Shown in pieces: positions 22,287-49,036 of a DNA stretch of 51,560 bases (the first letter of the stretch is position 1; the number at the start of each line of letters is the position of its first letter). This DNA comes from a virus (Duplodnaviria > Heunggongvirae > Uroviricota > Caudoviricetes), in IMG/VR virus record IMGVR_UViG_2537561778_000008. One strand, given 5' to 3'. The notes below the pieces were generated by a model, which saw only the letters and a program-made list of their open reading frames with translations, did not search any database and had not been told where the DNA came from. The translations under genes and the position numbers were made by a program.

Positions 22287-23330
22287 GTGAAAGCCGTAAT
22301 TACTCCCTTTGTACAAAAAGAGCTTGGCGTCGCCACATTCAAAGTGGATCAGGAAGTCAGAAAGCTGGTGGAGGCTGGCCGTAAATTTATTATGGAGCCG
22401 GTGCCGCGTGAGTTAATCGAGCACATGGACGACGGCCTCGTTGTTTCCGAGCAAACTATGGCAACAAATGAGGCGTTGCAGCCGTTTTTTAACAGCGATG
22501 AACTGTTTCGCCGTATTGGTGGAATTGACGCGCTGGTGGCGTGGTTGCGCAGGAAAGAGGGGCAATGCCAGGCCGCAGATCGTAGCTGGTGTGACAACCA
22601 TATTGTCCACGCTGAACGAGACAACAGCGCGGTGTTGTTGTGCTGGCATCACGATAATCATTACCGGATGCGTGGTTTTAATGAGCTGAAAGAAACGCTG
22701 CATAATAATCGCGTTAACTGGATACTGGATGTCGCTCGTCAGGAAATGGGCCTTTCTGATGGTCATGATTTAAGTATTCAGGAGCTGTGCTGGTGGGCTT
22801 TCATGCGCAACATGATCCACCTCATGCCGGAAGAAGTCTGCCGTATATCAATAAATAAGGTGAGGGCTGCAACGCAGGATAGCGGACCTCTGAAAGAGGC
22901 GGATATTCGCCCGTATGACGATCGCGCTACAGCATATGTTCAGATGATGGAAGAACGCGCCGCGCCGATGCGTGCAAAAGTATGCCCTGTGGATGTTGAC
23001 TCCGACCCTGGCATGGCGCATTTCAAAATACCAAAACTGCAATCGCTAAAATTACCTGAGTACATGGACTTTGTTGCTTCCCGTCCATGCTGTGGGTGTG
23101 GAGCTGCGGGAGCTGGCGCTCACATTACGCCTTATATCGTTCGTCATAGTCGATTATGCGCGCATGACATTTACGCAATTCCTCTGTGCCAGTCATGCCA
23201 GCGTGATATTGAGCGTGACCGCGATAATTGGGAGAAGACGCACGGCAGGCTGGCGATGCATCAACGATTGTTCTTTGATTACGCGCTTGGAGTCGGCGTT
23301 ATCACAAGTCACTCGTCGAGCGTTAGATAA
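22287..23330 (+). CDS. Hypothetical cysteine-rich protein (347 aa; pdcA-like position)
   Basis: GTG start; C-terminal [12 protein letters not shown]...[14 protein letters not shown] cluster. Confidence 0.45.
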
Positions 23331-23331
23331 A

Positions 23332-23348
23332 ATTGCTCTAATGTATTG
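23332..23348 (+). promoter_or_regulatory. C1 operator-like site (ATTGCTCTAATGTATTG) upstream of the lpa-position gene
   Basis: 11/17 contiguous match; P1 lpa is known to be C1-controlled. Confidence 0.4.
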
Positions 23349-23418
23349 CTATTTATTTAATCGAGGGTATTATATTCGTCGTTGATTAGTTGACATGGGC
23401 TAATCAGTAGGTGACAGG

Positions 23419-25150: not shown

Positions 25151-26634
25151 TGGCCAGAAGTTGCGTAACGGATCCACGTTGGCGCGAGCTGGTGGCGCTA
25201 TATCGTTATGACTGGATTGCGGCCGCTGATGTTTTGTTCGGCAAAACACCTACCTGGCAGCAGGATCTGATTATTGAGTCTGTGCAGGAACAGGGTAGCA
25301 AGACATCTGTTTCGTCTGGCCACGGTACCGGGAAATCAGACATGACTTCTATCATGATCATGTTGTTCATAATCATGTATCCCGGTGCCCGAGCCATTAT
25401 CGTTGCGAACAAAATTCAGCAGGTAATGACCGGTATATTCAAGTACATCAAGATAAACTGGGCTACTGCCACCAGCCGTTTTCCATGGCTTGCTGATTAT
25501 TTTGTTCTGACAGAAACCGCTTTCTATGAGGTTACTGGTAAAGGTGTATGGACTGTAGTACCGAAGGGCTTTCGTCTGGGAAGTGAAGAAGCTCTCGCCG
25601 GTGAACACGCAGATCATCTTCTGTATATTATCGATGAAGCCTCCGGTGTCAGTGATAGAGCTTTCGGTATCATCACCGGTGCTCTTACCGGACAGGATAA
25701 CCGCATCTTATTGCTGTCACAGCCTACACGCCCAAGCGGCTATTTCTACGATACACACCATAAACTGGCCAAGCGTCCTGGTAACCCTGATGGCGTTTAT
25801 ACGGCGATCACGCTTAACAGTGAGGAATCACCGTTGGTAACGCCAGCATTTATCAAAATGAAGCTGGCGGAGTACGGCGGGCGTGATAACCCTATGTACA
25901 TGATTAAGGTACGCGGCCTATTCCCTAAATCACAGGATGGCTTCCTTCTTGGACGTGATGAGGTTGAACGTGCAACGCGGCGGAAAGTCAAGATTGCAAA
26001 AGGATGGGGCTGGCTTGCATGTGTGGACGTTGCTGGTGGTACGGGACGGGATAAGTCCGTTATCAATATCATGATGGTGTCCGGCCAGCGAAATAAACGC
26101 CGTGTAATCAACTATCGAATGCTGGAATACACAGACGTTACAGAAACGCAGCTTGCCGCCAAAATTTTCGCAGAATGTAATCCTGAGCGATTCCCAAATA
26201 TCACCATAGCGATAGACGGCGATGGTCTGGGTAAAGCAACGGCGGATCTGATGTACGAGTATTATGGTATTACCGTACAGCGTATACGCTGGGGTAAAAA
26301 GATGCATAGCCGTGAAGATAAGAGCCTGTACTTTGATAAACGTGCTTATGCCAACGTTCAAGCCGCAGAGGCCGTAAAATCTGGTCGTATGAGACTGGAT
26401 AAGGGTAATGAAACTATTGAGGAAGCGTCGAAAATCCCTGTAGGGATTAACTCCGCAGGTCAATGGAAGGTGATGAGTAAGGAGGATATGAAGAAAAAAC
26501 TCAACCTGCACTCACCAGACCATTGGGATACATATTGTTTCGCTATGCTGGCGGATTATGTTCCCCAGGATGAAGTGCTTAGCGTCGAAGACGAAGCGCA
26601 GGTTGATGAAGCTCTGGCATGGCTTAATGAATGA
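25150..26634 (+). CDS. pacB: Pacase large subunit PacB (terminase ATPase-nuclease)
   Basis: 494 aa; Walker A-like SGHGTGKS and Walker B-like LLYIIDEAS; ATG overlaps pacA stop. Confidence 0.85.
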
Positions 26635-26637
26635 ATA

Positions 26638-26654
26638 TTTGCTCTAATAAATTG
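26638..26654 (+). promoter_or_regulatory. C1 operator-like site (TTTGCTCTAATAAATTG)
   Basis: Core TTGCTCTAATAAATT, 4 nt after pacB stop. Confidence 0.45.
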
Positions 26655-26786
26655 TGTTTTTTAGCTACCGATGTTACATTGAACCTGACCTCTTGCGCCT
26701 TGAGGCATTTTCGGTTTATGCTTATCAGGCACCTCATTAAAACGGGTGCCGGGATTGGAACCCCGGATAATGCAAAAGGCGACACA

Positions 26787-26808
26787 GACGCCAAAAGCGT
26801 CTTTTTTT
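26787..26808 (+). terminator. Rho-independent terminator (GACGC-CAAAA-GCGTC plus T7)
   Basis: 5-bp stem followed by TTTTTTT, about 150 bp downstream of pacB. Confidence 0.5.
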
Positions 26809-26993
26809 GTGTCATGCCATCGCACAGCCATACGTAGCACATAGCTCCGAGATCAATGGTAGTGCTGGCTGGGCTGCCGAAAGGCAGGCCGGTTCCCTTT
26901 TGCGCCGGTAGTTCCAACCCAGTCAGTGCTACCGCCATTGAGATTGGAACCTCACGCGGTAGCTCCTTAAGTTAGCAAAAGGAGGCTGCCATT

Positions 26994-27215
26994 ATGGCTA
27001 CTATCCCTACCCCAACTCACTCTGAATTTATCTGGCGCTTTTACTCCTGCCAGAAACGTCACTATCACTTCGTTATCGCAACAACAGAAGATGAGGCCCG
27101 CTCTCAGCTTCCTGACGCCCCATGTATTTTCTCTGCCCGTTTTTCCACTGATTCACGCAATTCTCTCAGTTACTGGTGCCTCCCTGTTAACGCTTCTGCT
27201 CAGGAGGGAGTATGA
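26994..27215 (+). CDS. Small hypothetical protein (73 aa) with strong SD
   Basis: AAAGGAGG SD 7 nt upstream; stop overlaps next start. Confidence 0.4.
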   Translation: MATIPTPTHSEFIWRFYSCQKRHYHFVIATTEDEARSQLPDAPCIFSARFSTDSRNSLSYWCLPVNASAQEGV

Positions 27216-28324
27216 GAACGTCATTAGTCACCCGTGAAGAAATGATTGAGGCAATTGAACAGCACACAGCCTGTATCAGTACCAGGGATATACCTGGCGT
27301 TATTGCCAACTACTTCATGATCACCAAACAACTTTACCGGAGAAAGGACAAGAACGCGGTTCACCGCATCCTGCTAACCGATATCCGTGAATACCTGCTC
27401 GAACAGGGTCATCTGAATTACGCAACCGTCGCAGCCGAAGCACGCAAGGAGGCACACAGAATGAAAGCAACTAACGTTAAATCAGAAAAAATTTATGCAC
27501 CTTCAGTTCAGGAATCGGAACTGGTGGTTGTTCAGAATCAGCCGGATGAAATTCCCGTTCTGGAATGGCAGGGAGTACGTGTCGTGACAACCGAAACTCT
27601 TGCTAGAGGGTATGGGGTCGATGAAGCCAATATTCGCAACAATTTGTCTCGCAACCTTGACCGCTTTGAAGAAGGTAAGCATTACTTTCTTCTAACTGGT
27701 TTAAAATTAAGAGAATTTAAGAACAGAGTAACCGGAAGTTACTCTGTTGGTAAGAACGCCAGAAGCCTTACACTCTGGACAGAGCGCGGCGCTGCACGCA
27801 TGTCTAAGATCGTGGACACAAATGAAGCATGGGCATTCTTTGAAAAACTGGAAGACAGCTACTTCCGGCAAAAAGAACAGCAACCGATCGCAATCCCCCA
27901 GACGCTTCCAGAAGCTCTGCGCCTGGCTGCCGAACTGGCTGAACAAAAGCAACTTCTGGAACAGAAAGCCCACCAGCTAAATCAGCAGCTGGTGGCCGCA
28001 GCCCCTAAAGTCGATTTTGCCGACCGGGTATCAGTGGCCAAGGGGATCCTGATTGGAAATTTTGCAAAGGTTGTTGGACTTAAGCAAAACGCGCTGTTTG
28101 CCTGGTTACGGGAGAACGGCATCCTGATAGCGTCCGGTGGACGTAAAAATGTGCCGTTCCAGCAATACATCAACGCCGGGTATTTCACGGTGAAAGAAGT
28201 GGTGCTGGATGATGAAGATGGCTACCAGATACGGTTGACGCCTCAATTAACGGGGAAAGGCCAGCAGTGGTTGACGCGTAAACTGCTCGATGCTGGCTTG
28301 TTAAAACCGGTGGCGGCTGAATAA
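27212..28324 (+). CDS. Phage antirepressor-like protein (Bro-N/ORF6N-like N-terminus, KilA-C/ORF6C-like C-terminus)
   Basis: 370 aa; N-terminal EWQGVRVVTTETLARGYGVDEANIRNNLSRNLDRFEEGKHYFLL and C-terminal VSVAKGILIGNFAKVVGLKQNALFAWLRENGIL resemble Ant/KilAC families; domain call from memory. Confidence 0.45.
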   Translation: MRTSLVTREEMIEAIEQHTACISTRDIPGVIANYFMITKQLYRRKDKNAVHRILLTDIREYLLEQGHLNYATVAAEARKEAHRMKATNVKSEKIYAPSVQESELVVVQNQPDEIPVLEWQGVRVVTTETLARGYGVDEANIRNNLSRNLDRFEEGKHYFLLTGLKLREFKNRVTGSYSVGKNARSLTLWTERGAARMSKIVDTNEAWAFFEKLEDSYFRQKEQQPIAIPQTLPEALRLAAELAEQKQLLEQKAHQLNQQLVAAAPKVDFADRVSVAKGILIGNFAKVVGLKQNALFAWLRENGILIASGGRKNVPFQQYINAGYFTVKEVVLDDEDGYQIRLTPQLTGKGQQWLTRKLLDAGLLKPVAAE

Positions 28325-28356
28325 TGGAAGAATGCCCGGTTGATGCCGGGCATAAT

Positions 28357-29208
28357 TTATTGCGCGCTTTCGGGGTTGTCGTTTACTGGCTGCCCCTTCT
28401 TGGTTTTACGGCTGCGCGTAACTGATGCGGCTGACTTAACCTTTTTCTCTTCGCGAGTGATGGCAATTTGTTTTTTTACATTTTCAATATCTGCCAGGCG
28501 ATATATTTTTGCTTGCGGCCAGCGGTCGCAGATGATCGGTTCTATGGAGTCATAAAGGCTAAATTTTGCTTTTTCGAATTCACCGTTGATGATAATTCCA
28601 TCACGGAGAGTTTCATCGCAGATAAACACGCCACACAGTGGCACATGGTAACTAACTGATTTACCATCATTGTAGTTAGGGCTACTGGAAATGTAGTGGA
28701 CGCGCAGCATTGTTTCGCTAAAGCCGTGTACGCGCATACGGAATTTTTCATCCTCCGGGTACTGCCTCATTAGCTCTTTTGTTGCTTCCAGGTTCTCTAT
28801 GTATTTCGCACTGTGCTCATTGATCCCCGCGCTTTTTTGGATGCGAATGTCCTTATCAATCAGATGAATAATGCGGCCAGCGGTCATGTTGACGCTGTTC
28901 ACAGCTTCTGTCTGATAAGTTGTAACCTTGCGCACACCGCGAAGGATGTTAGGCACTGGATATAAAATAGTCTTTGGGATATTGAGGTCTGGGTACTGTT
29001 CCAGTTCCCGCGCCATTAAAGTCCATTTATCAATTTCAGCCTGAATGCTGTCAGTTTCTTTGAACGGTAGAACGACAACCGGGCGTACAGGACGACCGTC
29101 GCTGGCTGTATCAACGTGTTGGGCGCGTGCAACGGCTTTTTTTAGAAAGAGATCCCTGAAGCTGACGAACTCCTGGTACAGTTGTTCGCCGTAGACATAA
29201 TTTATCAT
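28357..29208 (-). CDS. c1: C1 repressor of lysogeny
   Basis: 283 aa starting MINYVYGEQLYQEFVSFRDLFLKKAVARAQ; matches P1 C1 as I recall it; cognate operators present. Confidence 0.9.
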   Translation of the reverse strand: MINYVYGEQLYQEFVSFRDLFLKKAVARAQHVDTASDGRPVRPVVVLPFKETDSIQAEIDKWTLMARELEQYPDLNIPKTILYPVPNILRGVRKVTTYQTEAVNSVNMTAGRIIHLIDKDIRIQKSAGINEHSAKYIENLEATKELMRQYPEDEKFRMRVHGFSETMLRVHYISSSPNYNDGKSVSYHVPLCGVFICDETLRDGIIINGEFEKAKFSLYDSIEPIICDRWPQAKIYRLADIENVKKQIAITREEKKVKSAASVTRSRKTKKGQPVNDNPESAQ

Positions 29209-32753: not shown

Positions 32754-33395
32754 ATGGATAAGAAAATATGCGTTGTTTCAATGAGCGTCGGCAAACCGGC
32801 GTCAATGACTGCTGCATGGATCAACAATGAGCTGATAATGGCTGAGCGGACCAGCTACCCTGAACGCCGCCGCGATATGGAACTCCAGCTGCTGCGCGAA
32901 TTGCGAGAAAAAGAGGAAAAGGGTTTTATCGTGCTGGTGGAAGAGGAAAACAGCTTTATTACCGGTCGAGTTGGCCAGCGTGTAAGGTTGCGTGATCCCT
33001 TCATGAACGGTAGACCGGTACTGATTGAAGCAATGCAGATTTACAAGGAATTGGAACGCCAGAAAGCGATCAAGTTACCGCGCAAGGAATCCGGCAAATA
33101 CATCCTCCACCAAAGCATCTTCGATTCCGAACATGACAAAAAAGGCGATGAATTTTTCAACATCAACTGGAGCGAAATAACGACAGAGCACGTTCTGACG
33201 TTGTTATGCTGCTTCGCAACGGAATACAACAACGTTGCAAACTCCGACTACATCAGGGCAATGGCTGGAGAAGTTGAGCCACGCCAGGAACCATCGTTAC
33301 TAAGCCCACTGATTAACATAATTCGCGGCACACAGAGACTTGCGGAAAAAAGCGTTCCACATGGAATCTTAACTGGAAAGGGAAACTATTTTTAA
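32754..33395 (+). CDS. Hypothetical protein at the position of P1 mat; start uncertain
   Basis: ORF opens at ATG 32643; ATG 32754 has a GGGGG SD; followed by hairpins before convergent res. Confidence 0.5.
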   Translation: MDKKICVVSMSVGKPASMTAAWINNELIMAERTSYPERRRDMELQLLRELREKEEKGFIVLVEEENSFITGRVGQRVRLRDPFMNGRPVLIEAMQIYKELERQKAIKLPRKESGKYILHQSIFDSEHDKKGDEFFNINWSEITTEHVLTLLCCFATEYNNVANSDYIRAMAGEVEPRQEPSLLSPLINIIRGTQRLAEKSVPHGILTGKGNYF

Positions 33396-33437
33396 CGACC
33401 TGAGCGCCACTTCTTTCAGGTCGTGTTGGATGTCATA

Positions 33438-33461
33438 AAAAGGAGGTTTTCACCTCCTTTT
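33438..33461. terminator. Bidirectional terminator-like hairpin between convergent mat-position gene and res
   Basis: AAAGGAGG-TTTTCA-CCTCCTTT with A/T tracts on both sides; second hairpin GACCTGA...TCAGGTC at 33397-33422. Confidence 0.55.
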
Positions 33462-33470
33462 AAACTGGAA

Positions 33471-36383
33471 TTATGGTAATGCGCTCTTGATTAACTGATA
33501 AATATCATCATTAGCAAACTGCGTTTTGAATTCAACTTTAACAGACTGACTTATTTGATTGAAAAGCGCCTGGGCATGTTCAATTTTCTTTTTTTCTTCA
33601 AGCCGTAAACTATCCTTACTATCTACGTTTTTTGTTTCAATGATAAAGTTAAGATAATCACCTTCTGCTGTTTTTACAACATAAGCAAAATCGGGTGAGT
33701 AAGTGTATCCACCAGCTACCGGGATCTTAATAGAATTCTTCGGTATCTTTGAAAAAACAACAACAGACTGGATCTCTCTATCTGTTATATTACGCCTTTC
33801 AAGCTCTGAATCATAAAAAACCTCTTCAAAAAGATAAGTATCTAATGGTGCTTTTGAATTATCCTGTAATACACCAAGATCACTTGATAATACCTCGTCT
33901 AGAGGCTTACCATCAGCATTTGTGAACTTTGTGGGATGAATTGACCCCGAAATCAAATTATATCCGAGGCTGAATTTGTTAAACGAATTGTTCAACAAAT
34001 ACTTACTAAAACCAGATTTAATTTTTCTGATTGTTTGAATATTCAGGTATTCAGTGATATTAATAGTGTCTTTTATATCACAAAAAACTTTATGTAAAGT
34101 ATCGTGTTTAACAAAAATAGTCTGTGATAAGTTATCGAGAAACTCTCGATAACTCATTGTGTTTAGCTTAGCAAAGTCATCGTCATCACTAACAATGCTT
34201 TTCGACATTGCCATATCATTGTGGATGTAAATTTTATCAATGCGAGTATGAACGCCTGATTTGGTAAATCGTTCTGTTTCTTCGAGCATGAATGACTTGA
34301 AAATGGATAAAAACTCATTTTCACTGTTTATTTTGTACTCAATCACCGCTTTTTGATTGATTAATTCCCATAGTTCTTTCAGCTCACTGAACTTACCAAC
34401 ACGCATTTTAGTGCGTCTTTTTCCATCAGTAGCTTTTTTGATTTTACCTGGTTTCACTCCTATAGGGAATGCTGCTGGATATTTGGATTTTAAGCGGCTG
34501 TAGGCATCTGAATCTTTGAAATTATCATTTTCATCAATGATTTCATCATTGAAAAGTTCATTCATTAGTGCTCTGGATGAAAGCTCAGGATACTGAGCCC
34601 TGATTTGTTCCTTAAGCTCTTGAGTAAACTTACTTGGAACCCTTTCTTTGAAAGAACTCTCATTGACCTCTTTAACAAGTGAGTCAACAAAATCCTTTTC
34701 TGTAAAATCGACATAATATTTAAGGGTAAAATTGCGGTCTTTCACTCGACACATGTATTCATTCACAGGAAGACGCAAACCGCGCCCTACCTCTTGAAGC
34801 TTGGATGTGGTACTACCGCTCGAACGGAGCTTACAGATCTGAAAGACATTAGGATTATCCCATCCCTCACGCAACGTCCATTTTGAGAAAATGAAACGAC
34901 GTGGATTATCTAAAGACAGCAAAAGCTCTTTGTCATGAAGGATTTCGTTGATTTCCTTCTCGATTTTATCATCCTTATCACTGTTATCTTTTGAAAAATA
35001 ACCGCCATGAACGGAAGATATATCTTTAACTGTTTTTTCAAGATAGTTACTATAAAACTCATCTTTTTCTATTTTTAACAGTTCATTAGCTTCTGCCAAA
35101 ACATATTCTTCGAACTTAGCTTTCAAACTTCCGGCAATATTATTACCGTCACGATAACCTTCAATATCATCAATAAAGAAAAGAGTAAGAGGCTTTATGC
35201 GTGGCCTTTGTGTCAGAAACTCTTTTTCTAACTTAAAGTGTTCTTTGATAGCTTTCCTCATCATGCTGTCAGCAAGTGTCTGATCGTAAGAATAGGGGTT
35301 TATTGAGCAACCAATTTTTAGCTCAATACCATTACTCAACACTACTGTATTCTTGCCTAAGGCATCAAGAGTTAAATCGTGAATAGCACTATGTGTCTTA
35401 GATAGAGATTCACCTTTTGTTAACTTAAATAAAGTTTTCTTGTTATTTTCATTTAGCTCAAATGTAACTTCTTCCCCATCAGATTTAATGAACTTTAGGT
35501 TGGCGTCACCATCACCAACAATATCCTCAATGTACGCATCAATACCTTTAACAAGGTCTTCATTAAATGCATCCACAGCTGTAAGTCGATAAACTAAATT
35601 CTTATAGCCTTCACTAAAGGTCGCACCGTAGCGGATAATATATTGAGCATTAAACTTCTCTATATTTTCCCATGTCTTTTTACCAGTAGGAAATTTATGT
35701 GGTTCATCAATGATAATGAATGGTTTTACCGCACCAAGAGCTGAAAAGGGAGAATCAAAATGATTGTCAAGCAAGCCAACATCATAAGTGGAATTTAAAT
35801 TCTTAGAGTGAATCATTCCCGTGTTAATAACAAGAACGTGTATATATTTCTTATTGAAATTACTAGCTTCAACAAAATCATGTATAGCTTGAGGCATATA
35901 CGATTTTGTGCTTTTACCGGCATTTTTCTGACTTTCAACAACGTAAGTCTTTATTTCACGCTCATAATCATCTCTAAAGTGTTCTTTTAACGCATCGCTT
36001 TTCAAAAAGTTCACTGTTCCAGCTTTGATCGATAGAGTAGGAACAATAATGATAAACTTATTAATGCCAAATGATTTGTTCAGATCAAAAATTGTTTTAG
36101 TGTAGGTATACGTTTTACCTGTACCTGTCTCCATAGAAACATCGATTACGTTGCTTCCAGCATCGTAATTATTTTTTACATGTTCAATACCATTGAGTTC
36201 CTGAACTTTTTTTATATTTTTATAGTATTGCTGTTCAGTAAGCCGTAATTCTGGATTAACTAACAGGCGAATAGAAACATTATCCTCCTGATGAGATGTC
36301 GCGGAAACAAAAACGTTCATCACCGCATCGACACCTGCTTTCTGATGCGGTAAGTTCTTTTCGAATGTGAACCCTTTTGACAT
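33471..36383 (-). CDS. res: Type III restriction endonuclease subunit Res
   Basis: 970 aa; SF2 helicase motifs (TGTGKT, IIIDEPHKF); same length as EcoP1I Res as I recall; AT-rich. Confidence 0.9.
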   Translation of the reverse strand: MSKGFTFEKNLPHQKAGVDAVMNVFVSATSHQEDNVSIRLLVNPELRLTEQQYYKNIKKVQELNGIEHVKNNYDAGSNVIDVSMETGTGKTYTYTKTIFDLNKSFGINKFIIIVPTLSIKAGTVNFLKSDALKEHFRDDYEREIKTYVVESQKNAGKSTKSYMPQAIHDFVEASNFNKKYIHVLVINTGMIHSKNLNSTYDVGLLDNHFDSPFSALGAVKPFIIIDEPHKFPTGKKTWENIEKFNAQYIIRYGATFSEGYKNLVYRLTAVDAFNEDLVKGIDAYIEDIVGDGDANLKFIKSDGEEVTFELNENNKKTLFKLTKGESLSKTHSAIHDLTLDALGKNTVVLSNGIELKIGCSINPYSYDQTLADSMMRKAIKEHFKLEKEFLTQRPRIKPLTLFFIDDIEGYRDGNNIAGSLKAKFEEYVLAEANELLKIEKDEFYSNYLEKTVKDISSVHGGYFSKDNSDKDDKIEKEINEILHDKELLLSLDNPRRFIFSKWTLREGWDNPNVFQICKLRSSGSTTSKLQEVGRGLRLPVNEYMCRVKDRNFTLKYYVDFTEKDFVDSLVKEVNESSFKERVPSKFTQELKEQIRAQYPELSSRALMNELFNDEIIDENDNFKDSDAYSRLKSKYPAAFPIGVKPGKIKKATDGKRRTKMRVGKFSELKELWELINQKAVIEYKINSENEFLSIFKSFMLEETERFTKSGVHTRIDKIYIHNDMAMSKSIVSDDDDFAKLNTMSYREFLDNLSQTIFVKHDTLHKVFCDIKDTINITEYLNIQTIRKIKSGFSKYLLNNSFNKFSLGYNLISGSIHPTKFTNADGKPLDEVLSSDLGVLQDNSKAPLDTYLFEEVFYDSELERRNITDREIQSVVVFSKIPKNSIKIPVAGGYTYSPDFAYVVKTAEGDYLNFIIETKNVDSKDSLRLEEKKKIEHAQALFNQISQSVKVEFKTQFANDDIYQLIKSALP

Positions 36384-36385
36384 GA

Positions 36386-38347
36386 TTAGTTCCTTACCAC
36401 TAAATCTAACTCAATAGATTTTTTGTTAGCATAACTTTTTAGCGCCTCATTAAGCTCCCTTTGTTTTGCACTTTCAAAGTTACAACCATAAAACACGACT
36501 TTGTTTGGGGCAAAATCTTCATCTGAATCCAGCTTTTGGAGCAACGCTTTCAATGCTTCGCTAGTAAAATTAGGTGCAATCAAATACAGACGGCCATTGC
36601 AAAAGTGTGCTGTATAGCCACTAAGATCAACATCTTCAATAGGTGTTGTTAACAAGCTACCATCATATACACACCATGTAGTCAATAGGGCATCATACTG
36701 TTCAGGCGTTAATACCGCATCATCAAAGAATGTATGATTAGTGAGCGTAAGTTCAGACTCAACTTTTGCTCTAAAGTCATCAATAGTATGAATCACTTTG
36801 AAACCTATTTTAGCCGCATTATCACTTGTGGTTGTGCTTTTTTTAAATACCTCCTGTATCCTTTTTTTTGTTATTTCAAAAATAGATCTATAGCCAAGAG
36901 AATAGGCATTCTTTGTTTTATTTATAACTTCATCTTTTTGTATGCATATAAAATTCCTACAGCCTGAATCTTTTTCATTTAAATATGCAACAGCTTCTGC
37001 TGTCGTACCAGAGCCAGCAAAAAAGTCAAGAACTAATGAATCCTTTTTTGTTCCTATTTTTACAAGATCGGTTATAAGAGGAACAGGTTTTGGTCCTTCA
37101 AATAATTTTGCACCTAAAAGATTTTTAAGCTCAGTTGTCGCCGTGCTTGTACTATATTCAGGTTTATACCAAATTGATTTTGGCTTTTTAGTTGGTAGCT
37201 CTCCAAGAGCAGGCCGCTGTTTTTTATAGATATTTTTACCATCTTTTATATCTATTACTATTAGATTATAAAACTCATCATTTATTTTTTTCTTTCCCCA
37301 CGACCATGAAAGCTCTTCACCCGTAGGGCTTACTGGGTAAAGTACATAGTCATCTTCGTTAAGAGGTTTATCATCATCTGTTACATAAACCTTATTTTCT
37401 GAATTGATGAATACCGGAAACCAACCTTTTGGTCTTGATTTTCTAGAAGCATCTTGGCCAGTACGCTTTAATGTATCAGCTCTTTTAAATAGCCCATATT
37501 CATCTTCATCCCACTCTTTTTCAACTTCACTTTCATCAATATCGAATTGCCCCAAACTACAAACATCTTTGTTTTTAGCGTATACATATATATATTCATG
37601 CGTATCTGAAAAGCCAAAGTTATCATGATTGCCTTTGAGATTCATGATTGTAGGGAGTTTTGCAACAAAATTACCTTGCCCAAATACTTCGTCGCATAAT
37701 AATCCCAACTGTTTATCTTCGTTATCGTCTATGGAGATGAATATTACTCCATCCTCTTTTAAAAGTTCACGTGCAATATAAAGACGAGGATAAATGAATG
37801 TCAGCCATGCACTATGACTGCTTGAACCCTTGGTGGTAAATTCAAGTATGCGGTTAGCCTCATCAAGCTCGATACCTGCCAGTTCAGAAAGCTGTTCTGG
37901 TGTAAACTTGCGATCATCGTTATAGACGAATCCATCTTTACCCGTATTGTATGGTGGGTCAATGTAAATCATATTCACCTTTTCAGCATAAGCATTAACC
38001 ATATGCTTCAATACTTCGAGGTTATCCCCTTTGATTAACAGGTTTTGACTGTTCTTGTTCTCTTCTTGTTGGTTATGTGTTTTATCTTCTGCCAACAACG
38101 TTTTCGGTGGTAGATTGGCCAACAAACGGGCATAAGATTTACCCAGCCAGTTTAAACTGTATGATTCTTTAGAGAGTTCAACCTCCGATGCTCTAATAAT
38201 CTCAAGCAATTTTTCTTGAATGAAGGCTCCGTTTTTATCAAAACACTGTGGGAAATTAGCTTTCAACACAGCCAGTTGCTTGCTGTTAGCCGTTTCTACT
38301 TCGGAAAAAATCGTTTCTTTTTTCATATCCATTTTAAACCAGATCAT
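36386..38347 (-). CDS. mod: Type III DNA methyltransferase subunit Mod
   Basis: DPPY motif (IYIDPPYNTG) preceding FxGxG (DFFAGSGTT), beta-class order; start at Met8 (38326) would give 646 aa. Confidence 0.9.
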   Translation of the reverse strand: MIWFKMDMKKETIFSEVETANSKQLAVLKANFPQCFDKNGAFIQEKLLEIIRASEVELSKESYSLNWLGKSYARLLANLPPKTLLAEDKTHNQQEENKNSQNLLIKGDNLEVLKHMVNAYAEKVNMIYIDPPYNTGKDGFVYNDDRKFTPEQLSELAGIELDEANRILEFTTKGSSSHSAWLTFIYPRLYIARELLKEDGVIFISIDDNEDKQLGLLCDEVFGQGNFVAKLPTIMNLKGNHDNFGFSDTHEYIYVYAKNKDVCSLGQFDIDESEVEKEWDEDEYGLFKRADTLKRTGQDASRKSRPKGWFPVFINSENKVYVTDDDKPLNEDDYVLYPVSPTGEELSWSWGKKKINDEFYNLIVIDIKDGKNIYKKQRPALGELPTKKPKSIWYKPEYSTSTATTELKNLLGAKLFEGPKPVPLITDLVKIGTKKDSLVLDFFAGSGTTAEAVAYLNEKDSGCRNFICIQKDEVINKTKNAYSLGYRSIFEITKKRIQEVFKKSTTTSDNAAKIGFKVIHTIDDFRAKVESELTLTNHTFFDDAVLTPEQYDALLTTWCVYDGSLLTTPIEDVDLSGYTAHFCNGRLYLIAPNFTSEALKALLQKLDSDEDFAPNKVVFYGCNFESAKQRELNEALKSYANKKSIELDLVVRN

Positions 38348-38477
38348 TTAGCAACAAAGCGCCGCCTCCCCAGCCCGTTAGAGCCAGAAGTTGTGGCACT
38401 ATCACTATCTATATGTTTGAAGAATCGTGCTTCTTTGAGCGATGCTCGGTGAGCAAACAGCCATAATTTGGGGAAGT

Positions 38478-38726
38478 TTAATCCGCATTGAGAAGCAATG
38501 CATTATCTATGATGATCTGCTCCCATTCTTCGAATGCCCGGTCACGGACGCCCTGGGGAACGCTGTTAGTTTTGAAATCGACGACCGTACGCCATTTCCC
38601 GTCCGGACGGTACATGCGCAGAGCTTTACTTCCCCCTTCCCTGCGCACCTCAACGTTATGCTTGTCAGCAAACTCTTGTAATGCTCGTAGCGTCCCATGC
38701 TTTACTGTGTAGTATCGCTTTTTCAA
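38478..38726 (-). CDS. lxc: Small protein (82 aa) at the position and size of P1 Lxc/Bof C1 co-repressor
   Basis: 82 aa; downstream of the ulx-position gene with 4-nt overlap; by size and synteny. Confidence 0.55.
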   Translation of the reverse strand: MKKRYYTVKHGTLRALQEFADKHNVEVRREGGSKALRMYRPDGKWRTVVDFKTNSVPQGVRDRAFEEWEQIIIDNALLLNAD

Positions 38727-39163
38727 GTTTTCTCTCCAGCCTGTGCCAAGGCTTCAACTTCCAAATCGTAAGACTCAAACTCATAGTCCTGGTCGTCAAC
38801 TTCTTCAGGCACTGGCAGTAAATGCCAGGCTGAGTATATCTGACCATTATCAAAACGCTCCTGGCTGTAGAGCGTCGCGGCTATGAGTGTTAGCGCCGGG
38901 CGGTCATAACGGTAAATTTTGCGAACGTCACGGTCAACGAGACGACCGAAATTACCATAACCGCGCTCCAGTAATAATTTTTTAATTTCCGGCCAGTATG
39001 GACCATAGCTGCGGTACAGGCGGGGATTTTTCAGTAATCGCCCGCGTAGCCCTGACAGGAAGAAATCAACGTATTCGTCTTCTGTCTTTCCTAACAACGC
39101 TGTACGGAGTACCGCCTCAAGATATGTTTTATTCGGTTTTATTGTATCAGATAGTGTGGCCAT
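38723..39163 (-). CDS. Hypothetical protein (146 aa) at the position of P1 ulx
   Basis: Between darB and lxc on the same strand. Confidence 0.5.
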   Translation of the reverse strand: MATLSDTIKPNKTYLEAVLRTALLGKTEDEYVDFFLSGLRGRLLKNPRLYRSYGPYWPEIKKLLLERGYGNFGRLVDRDVRKIYRYDRPALTLIAATLYSQERFDNGQIYSAWHLLPVPEEVDDQDYEFESYDLEVEALAQAGEKT

Positions 39164-46030: not shown

Positions 46031-47761
<1,731 letters not shown>

Positions 47762-49036
47762 ACGGCAAACATTCCCAATTCACAGAGTCCGACCTAAACC
47801 ACATGAAGCGGCTTAGGAATTACAGACTCTCCAAGGGCTAACACTGCCAGCCCGGCAGCTTTTATATTACGGGCCGCGTTAATATCACGATCATGCTCTG
47901 CGCCACATTCCGGGCAGTGCCATTTACGAATATTAAGAGGCATTTTTTGCATGGTGAAGCCGCAACTGCTGCAACGTTTGGAAGAAGGGAAATACTGGTC
48001 GATAGCGACAATGCTACGTCCACCCCATTCTCCTTTGTACTGGAGTTGGCGTACAAGTTCGCTCCAGCCTGCGTCAGCTATTGCTTTAGACAGCTTCGGG
48101 TTACGGATCATGTTTTTCACTTTAAGGGATTCGACGCAAACAACTTGGTTTTCGTTAATCAGTTTGCGGGACAACTTATGCAGGTTATCCATCCGACAAT
48201 CGACTATTCTCGCGTGGAGGCGGGCAACCTTTAAACGTGCTTTGGCGCGGTTCTTTGAGCCTTTTTGTTTCTTGCTCAATCTGCGCTGTAACACTGCTAA
48301 TCGCTTCGCGTATTTAGCGTTGTGTCGAGGATTGCCAGTTTTGAAACCGGTATCGGTGACGAACAAATCTTTTAAACCAATATCAATGCCGACCGTGGAA
48401 ACGGTGATCGGCAGTGATACAGGCTCAAACTCGCAGAGACAGGATACAAAATATCGTTCGGCAGCATCCCTGGTGATAGTGACAGTGGATGGAGCAGACG
48501 GCAACGGACGGCTCCAGCGAACATCTAACGGCTCTTTGCTCTTTGCCATGTACAGCTTGCCGTCACGGTATTTAAATGCGCTGGCAGTTAGTTCTGCGGC
48601 CTGTTTATGCCGCTTGCTCTTAAAAACTGGGTATGCAGCACGCCCGGCGAAAAAGTTAGCAAAAGCCGTTTGTTGGTGGCGCAGAGACTGCTGGAGGGGG
48701 ACGCAGGAAACGTCATTCAGCCAGGCGAATTCTGGTTCTTTTTTCAGTGCCGTTAATTTGGCGCTGGCTTGTGCATAGCCGACCCTCTCATGGCGTGCGT
48801 AGTACGCATCGGTGCGCCAGCGAAGGAGGCTGTTATAGACAAAACGCACACACCCAAAAGTCCGGGCTAATAGCTCGGTTTGTTCGGGAGTTGGGTAGAA
48901 TCGATATTTATAGGCACGCTTCATGTTCTATATAATACATTGAAACTAATGAGTATATAAATGAATACACGGACGAAAATGTTATCAAAGCCAATATACC
49001 AACAGACATTAGGTAAGGTAGCTGGAGGGCAATATA
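47762..49036 (-). mobile_element. IS200/IS605-family TnpB-only element inserted between prt and pro (boundaries approximate)
   Basis: TnpB gene fills nearly the whole prt-pro intergenic; no tnpA ORF; only 32 nt separate tnpB stop from prt stop. Confidence 0.6.
47794..48924 (-). CDS. tnpB: TnpB, IS200/IS605-family RuvC-like nuclease
   Basis: 376 aa; N-terminus MKRAYKYRFYPTPEQ; C-terminal zinc finger CSSCGF...CPECGAEHDRDINAARNI. Confidence 0.9.
   Translation of the reverse strand: MKRAYKYRFYPTPEQTELLARTFGCVRFVYNSLLRWRTDAYYARHERVGYAQASAKLTALKKEPEFAWLNDVSCVPLQQSLRHQQTAFANFFAGRAAYPVFKSKRHKQAAELTASAFKYRDGKLYMAKSKEPLDVRWSRPLPSAPSTVTITRDAAERYFVSCLCEFEPVSLPITVSTVGIDIGLKDLFVTDTGFKTGNPRHNAKYAKRLAVLQRRLSKKQKGSKNRAKARLKVARLHARIVDCRMDNLHKLSRKLINENQVVCVESLKVKNMIRNPKLSKAIADAGWSELVRQLQYKGEWGGRSIVAIDQYFPSSKRCSSCGFTMQKMPLNIRKWHCPECGAEHDRDINAARNIKAAGLAVLALGESVIPKPLHVV

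Follow-up and report, generated by a model that had tools for sequence, protein, structure and literature searches.

A very probable EcoP1I Type III restriction-modification system between mat and lxc of a P1-like phage-plasmid

The module described here is very probably the EcoP1I Type III restriction-modification system of phages P1 and P7, intact and flanked by mat and lxc in a P1-like phage-plasmid, as judged from its agreement with the known genes and proteins. It was found in a virus sequence of 51,560 nucleotides (IMG/VR virus record IMGVR_UViG_2537561778_000008), which in its full length is called the window, and all positions are those of the window unless another record is named. The EcoP1I system is already known, is found here in its known place and does not offer a new specificity. 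Its sequence dates from the 1980s, and biochemical work on the enzyme has been carried out ever since. As this is a textbook enzyme, and as its occurrence on wild P1-like phage-plasmids has already been documented, the significance of the result is small. The practical yield is an annotation, namely the module label EcoP1I with the specificity AGACC.

Identity of the module

The region 33300-38800 was compared with phages P7, P1, phi456 and vB_EcoM-813R1 using Megablast and is 99.8-99.9% identical to them over its full length. For the base-by-base comparison with P1, the IS5 element of the P1 reference was taken out together with its 4-bp duplication. Here 11 of the 5,501 positions differ between the window and P1, and both mod and the mod-lxc interval are free of such differences. 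The best-matching plasmid records in PLSDB are 99.8-100% identical to the region.

The likeness to EcoP1I of P1 (X06287, NC_005856) covers the Mod protein (646/646 residues), the mod DNA, the mod-lxc interval and Res (968/970), as well as the site between mat and lxc, the promoter regions as annotated and the junction of 2 nt between mod and res. The window differs from P1 in having G76 and E618 in Res, and in having a mod without the IS5 of the P1 reference. EcoP7 of phage P7 (AF503408) is likewise similar: its DNA is 99.9% identical over 5.5 kb, its genes follow in the same order and its mod-lxc interval is the same, without an IS. P7 carries I560 in Mod, which is outside the central region, and differs by L590F and Q593L in Res.

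The following features make up the module and its border with the phage backbone:

33325..38479, no strand assigned: exchangeable cargo module, AT-rich, running from the final 71 bases of mat up to the stop codon of lxc (comparison with p655Rt_p0111)
33471..36383, minus strand: res, EcoP1I restriction subunit, 970 aa (ORF, Pfam and match to 4zcf_C)
36384..36388, minus strand: mod-res junction, mod stop TAA, TC, res ATG (AAC TAA TC ATG TCA; from the sequence)
36386..38326, minus strand: mod, EcoP1I methyltransferase and recognition subunit, 646 aa (published start at 38326)
38478..38726, minus strand: lxc (bof), flanking backbone gene outside the restriction-modification system (P1 and P7 annotation, ORF)

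The two genes are adjacent on the minus strand with mod upstream and res downstream, which is the gene layout of Type III systems. An earlier reading of the same DNA, made from the sequence only, had described an intact Type III system consisting of two AT-rich ORFs. That description is correct: both ORFs are complete, the catalytic motifs were all found, and the quality of the matches is far above chance expectation. A premature stop in res or mod, which the same reading named as evidence against itself, was looked for and is absent from both ORFs. The GC content is 35.8% for the module, 34.8% for res and 36.0% for mod, compared with 48.5% elsewhere in the window, so the AT-richness is confirmed as well.

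No evidence contradicting the EcoP1I identity arose in the analysis.

The res gene and the Res protein

Res was reported as an intact protein of 970 aa, and the ORF at 33471-36383 on the minus strand agrees with this, having all the motifs of the protein: GTGKT at residues 87-91, DEPH at 226-229, PD at 897-898 and E916-x-K918. Pfam domains ResIII (5e-18) and DEAD were found at aa 65-258, and RE_endonuc (4e-25) at aa 849-954. This is the architecture of the family, with an N-terminal SF2 helicase/ATPase and a C-terminal PD-(D/E)xK nuclease. Moreover, the protein aligns along the entire EcoP15I Res chain 4zcf_C (E=0).

The two residues that differ from P1 Res, which is the protein studied biochemically, are G76R and E618D, where the window has G76/E618 and P1 has R76/D618. 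Residue 76 is found 11 residues ahead of the Walker A motif. Res of P7 is also identical to the window at 968/970 residues, and Res of the Salmonella plasmid pSA20030575.2 is identical throughout. As the window, P7 and pSA20030575.2 agree at both positions 76 and 618, P1 is the odd one out. On the DNA level, res differs from P1 res by seven single-base differences, mostly silent.

The mod gene and the Mod protein

The open frame of mod reaches an upstream ATG at 38347 and thereby covers 36386-38347 on the minus strand, or 653 codons, beginning with MIWFKMDMKKET. The start of the published P1 and P7 Mod is the third Met (MKKET), which is Met8 at position 38326 and results in 646 aa. The assignment made earlier, a 653-codon ORF with a protein of 646 aa from Met8, agrees with both the published and the P7 annotation. 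In RefSeq entries for plasmid copies of mod, the start has been placed at Met6.

Mod was compared with the proteins of X06287, P7 and a Salmonella plasmid. It was found to be identical at every residue to EcoP1I Mod (CAA29614.1, GenBank X06287), and mod is the same as in P1 base for base, with zero differences over positions 36159-38561. The only change relative to P7 Mod is T560I (T here, I in P7).

Pfam domains N6_N4_Mtase (1e-43) and T3RM_EcoP15I_C (4e-34) were found in the protein, and it matches the EcoP15I chain of structure 4ZCF with E=3e-233. The order of motifs is that of a beta-class N6-adenine methyltransferase, where DPPY (residues 123-126) comes before the SAM-binding FxGxG motif (FAGSG, residues 436-440) and a variable centre lies between the two.

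The mod-lxc interval and IS elements

The interval from the lxc stop to the first ATG of the mod ORF is 130 bp long (38348-38477), in agreement with the length reported before, and 151 bp long if counted from Met8. No IS is present in this interval of the window. The sequence-only reading stated that P1 carries an IS1 in the mod-lxc interval, and took the short interval as a sign of an IS-free ancestral state. Neither statement holds. In the annotation of the P1 reference NC_005856, the stretch separating mod from lxc is free of IS elements. An IS5 flanked by a 4-bp duplication (record 7652-8846) interrupts mod itself, inserted after the base equivalent to window position 37578, which is nucleotide 749 of mod. 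The IS1 of P1 (record 22626-23393) is located between isaA and isaB, about 12.6 kb from lxc, and the genes separating the two include darB, prt, pro, lyz and ssb. This IS1 site is a separate variable region, RD-2 (PMC6906374).

P1, P7 and the window share one and the same mod-lxc interval, with base-for-base identity between the window and P1, and both wild-type P1 mod (X06287) and P7 have an uninterrupted mod in the same IS-free layout. As the interval is no departure from P1, its length of 130 bp is uninformative on the ancestral state.

The P1 strain that was sequenced is a laboratory mutant, P1 mod749::IS5 c1.100 (PMC6906374). With IS5 of the P1 reference being a laboratory insertion, it is the intact wild elements that represent the natural state of mod. 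Natural relatives bearing an IS1 have it within one of the two genes and not in the mod-lxc interval, i.e. inside mod in p47538_2 and inside res in CP098997.1. Two minor observations concern the same region: NZ_CP070907.1 carries an ISVsa5 somewhere within the 5.5 kb, and pSCU-120-2 has one extra base, a G, in the mod-lxc interval.

Promoters and the mod-res junction

Promoter positions were taken from the P1 annotation and mapped to the window by adding 30299 to the P1 (L001) coordinate, or 29100 beyond IS5. This resulted in five promoters:

36485..36513, minus strand: P1res, predicted sigma-70 promoter in the 3' part of mod
36818..36846, minus strand: P2res (formerly PR1), res promoter within mod
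36853..36879, minus strand: P3res, res promoter within mod
38377..38405, minus strand: P1mod, promoter in the mod-lxc interval
38475..38503, minus strand: P2mod (formerly PM2), promoter overlapping the 3' end of lxc

All five annotated regions are base-identical in the window, and the identity runs to position 38561. The mod stop and the res start are 2 nt apart, and it has been proposed that ribosomes move from the mod terminator onto the res initiator codon (PMC3874151).

Expected mode of action

Gene integrity, the motifs, the identity with EcoP1I and the identity of the promoter regions were read directly from the DNA and its translations; the mechanism given in this section is adopted from the EcoP1I literature.

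Given the near-identity to EcoP1I, a Mod dimer would bind AGACC and methylate one strand, and the nuclease would consist of Res and Mod assembled (PMC3874151, PMC6158743, PMC4005696). Cleavage is expected to be ATP-dependent and to require two unmethylated sites in inverted orientation relative to each other (PMC3874151, PMC6158743). According to the same work and PMC4005696, ATP hydrolysis by the helicase-like domain of Res would lead to one-dimensional sliding of the enzyme, and a collision of the sliding enzyme with a site-bound one would result in a cut near one of the sites.

Transcription of mod would start, following the literature, from two promoters in and just past the 151-bp mod-lxc interval. 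For res, separate promoters within mod would be used, and Mod would increase the amount of cellular Res (PMC3874151, PMC6158743, PMC4005696). Assuming expression in the host, the role of the system would be defence of the lysogen against incoming unmodified DNA; an additional contribution to plasmid maintenance has been proposed.

It could be argued that the genes are intact while the system is silent or weakened, due to Res G76/E618 or to host-dependent expression, so that it acts as a methylase only or is inactive. The points in favour of this are indirect. Type III systems with a non-functional res do exist in other bacteria (PMC3874151). In addition, IS hits recur in the module among relatives (the IS5 of laboratory P1, and an IS1 each in p47538_2 mod and CP098997.1 res), which suggests that loss of the system is tolerated. 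Against this, the helicase and nuclease motifs of Res are all there, the G76/E618 allele is common to P7 and the Salmonella plasmid, and none of the promoter regions annotated for P1 shows a sequence change. A silent or weakened system is considered very unlikely.

Recognition sequence

Specificity in this enzyme family is determined by the central third of Mod, where EcoP1 and EcoP15 are "totally non-homologous" (PMC3874151). The corresponding part of the window is:

36808..37679, minus strand: central third of mod (about aa 216-506), target-recognition region (no alignment to mod of pUTAK-13-1)

This part is identical to EcoP1I, and EcoP1I recognises 5'-AGACC-3' (PMC2962900). With a recognition region that matches M.EcoP1I throughout, Mod of the window can be given the specificity AGACC on the strength of its sequence. 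On the basis of this protein identity, m6A at AGACC is predicted in a host carrying the element (PMC2962900). The window has 60 AGACC sites, 30 on each strand, so the element would be dependent on its own methylase.

EcoP15I (plasmid p15B; 4ZCF) is the other well-matching enzyme. It has the same architecture, Res aligns over the full length, and Mod agrees almost completely over its N-terminal ~255 and C-terminal ~250 residues. In contrast to the AGACC of EcoP1I, EcoP15I recognises CAGCAG (PMC3874151). The difference in specificity follows from the Mod alignment, where about aa 256-394 of the query, part of the recognition region, are left unaligned; this gap and the central third overlap to a large extent.

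The earlier reading held that the specificity was not assignable from sequence and might be unlike both EcoP1I and EcoP15I, which would imply a different recognition region. Such alleles do occur at the same locus in other P1-like plasmids. The res-mod of pUTAK-13-1, whose type of mod allele is represented by WP_032244074.1, is ~92% identical to the window, except for the central mod third, which does not align and is unlike both EcoP1I and EcoP15I. In the window, though, Mod is M.EcoP1I at all 646 residues and the mod DNA is base-identical, so that a third specificity is refuted, with hardly any probability left to it. The same reading had stated that a central region identical to EcoP1I would leave no new specificity, and this is what was found.

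The T8 tract

A run of eight T is located at 36862-36869. On the coding strand it reads ACA AAA AAA AGG, i.e. T-K-K-R, and according to the P1 annotation mapped to the window it is part of the spacer of P3res, one of the res promoters.

Slippage in such a tract (A8 on the coding strand) would make mod phase-variable, like the phasevarions of Haemophilus and Neisseria. This idea has in its favour that a homopolymer of 8 lies within the mod coding sequence, and that Type III mod genes subject to phase variation are well documented (PMC3874151). The length of the tract was obtained by a pattern scan allowing 5-12 bases between the flanks, and it is 8 in 5/5 IMG/VR contigs. It is also 8 in P1, P7, X06287, pSA20030575.2, pSCU-120-2 and vB_EcoM-813R1, so no variation in length was seen across the 11 relatives checked. 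Furthermore, in the listed spread sample of E. coli records, the 13 that are full-length and uninterrupted all have exactly the length of the query, 2,092 bp.

Tandem repeats of the phasevarion type were not found in the window mod by Tandem Repeats Finder. The mod genes of phasevarions (Haemophilus, Neisseria, Helicobacter) belong to the same enzyme family, but the window mod has no tandem repeat tract, and its A8 is constant among the relatives. The tract is a pair of Lys codons in DNA of 36% GC, which has four T7 runs as well. Phase variation through this tract has a negligible probability, and the earlier dismissal of the run as unremarkable is supported by the Lys-Lys codons and the constant length in 11 relatives.

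Two records of unequal length were aligned pairwise as well, and the tract is unchanged in them. The indels of vB_EcoM-813R1 fall in other homopolymers (three T7, one A5 and two G-runs) and look like sequencing errors.

Location and distribution

The window has the gene order annotated in P1 and P7, as expected for a slot in a P1-like phage-plasmid (Punavirus). One flank of the module carries ban (dnaB), lpa, pacAB, c1, cre, c8, ref and mat, and the other carries lxc, ulx, darB, prt, pro, lyz and ssb. The slot corresponds to RD-1, a variable region already known, and the literature describes res-mod as low in GC and recently acquired (PMC6906374).

A search of 5,426 complete E. coli genomes found EcoP1I mod at an identity of at least 99% in about 41 of them. 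Among the plasmid records in PLSDB, 743 match the query and 64 of these hold at least 80% of the region. Most P1-like elements are without the res-mod module.

In P1-like phages without res-mod, the match to the window begins only at positions 38471-38482. In p655Rt_p0111, which has the same backbone, the res-mod stretch of 5,155 bp is replaced by 1,127 bp with a PIN-domain gene. The alignment to this plasmid ends at window positions 33324 and 38480, where 38480 belongs to the stop codon of lxc. The sharp boundary at the lxc stop may stem from a specific mechanism of recombination by which cargo is exchanged in this slot and, as a separate matter, Res G76/E618 may alter ATPase activity or cleavage; taken jointly, these two proposals are given only a very slight chance. 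If true, neither a Res-allele effect nor such a mechanism would change the identity of the system.

Both p655Rt_p0111 and the window have a TnpB insertion and an antirepressor module.

Exchange of the res-mod module

The mat-lxc interval, known as the variable region RD-1 of P1-like phages (PMC6906374), behaves as a cargo exchange site. In plasmid p655Rt_p0111 (L016), which has the same backbone, the res-mod module is replaced by a gene for a 316-aa PIN-domain protein; here positions 9611-10737 of L016 correspond to positions 33325-38479 of the window, and the right edge of the exchange is the lxc stop codon.

At this locus a third Mod allele occurs in P1-like plasmids, as in pUTAK-13-1 (NZ_CP169009.1, L015 4001-5971). 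The ends of this protein are nearly identical to both EcoP1I and EcoP15I; its central third is unlike EcoP1I and shows only a loose similarity to EcoP15I. Among the matches listed there were about 12 E. coli plasmid records carrying mod at 90-95% identity. We consider the third allele a more likely source of a new Type III specificity in P1-like phages than the window, the Mod of which is identical to M.EcoP1I. Most of darB is also missing from pUTAK-13-1.

Integrity of res and mod

At position 33945, within res, the window carries a C where P1, P7, X06287, pSA20030575.2, pSCU-120-2 and phage vB_EcoM-813R1 all carry an A. This is a silent substitution, as the Res of the window matches that of the Salmonella plasmid pSA20030575.2 at every residue.

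IS insertions have arisen independently in the AT-rich res-mod module of natural isolates. IS1B interrupts mod in p47538_2 (L013), IS1 interrupts res in CP098997.1 (L014), and NZ_CP070907.1 has an ISVsa5 somewhere within the 5.5-kb region. A further case in the module is a laboratory IS5 insertion in P1 mod.

The res and mod genes of vB_EcoM-813R1 (ON470617.2, L007) are broken into several ORFs annotated as 'hypothetical protein'. Six single-base deletions cause this splitting, and each falls in a homopolymer: three in T7, one in A5 and two in G-runs. The deletions look like long-read sequencing error and not like real decay.

Mobile element at prt/pro

The window carries a TnpB-only element:

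47743-49036, TnpB-only element of the IS200/IS605 type
47794-48924, minus strand, tnpB ORF

The ORF carries the Pfam domains HTH_OrfB_IS605, OrfB_IS605 and a Cas12f1-like TNB domain. The element is inserted exactly at the prt/pro overlap of P1, so mobile DNA does occur in the window, at a distance of 9 kb from mod. Through the insertion the C-terminus of Prt is changed from NDND* to NDIDNCPP*, while pro is left intact but is no longer coupled to prt. Of 5,426 E. coli genomes, 38 have the same 1.3-kb element at an identity of at least 99%; in most cases it sits on a plasmid of ~95-100 kb, next to the portal gene.

immI-like module

Between pacB and c1 the window carries an immI-like module of 1.7 kb with the following features:

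26633-28357, immI-like module
26729-26807, isrK match
26852-26939, C4 antisense RNA match
27212-28324, antirepressor ORF (370 aa, ORF6N and ANT/KilAC)

The Salmonella plasmid pSA20030575.2 is otherwise very similar to the window but is without this module. Plasmid p655Rt_p0111 does have the module, and its annotation there comprises ash, an icd-like gene and an antirepressor.

AGACC sites and tRNA gene

The EcoP1I site AGACC occurs 30 times per strand in the whole window. Base composition taken by itself predicts roughly 45 and 50, an apparent shortfall as judged by that measure. Finally, one tRNA gene was located:

1593-1668, tRNA-Met (CAT), upstream of the dnaB-like ban

This placement agrees with the expectation for the P1 tRNA region.
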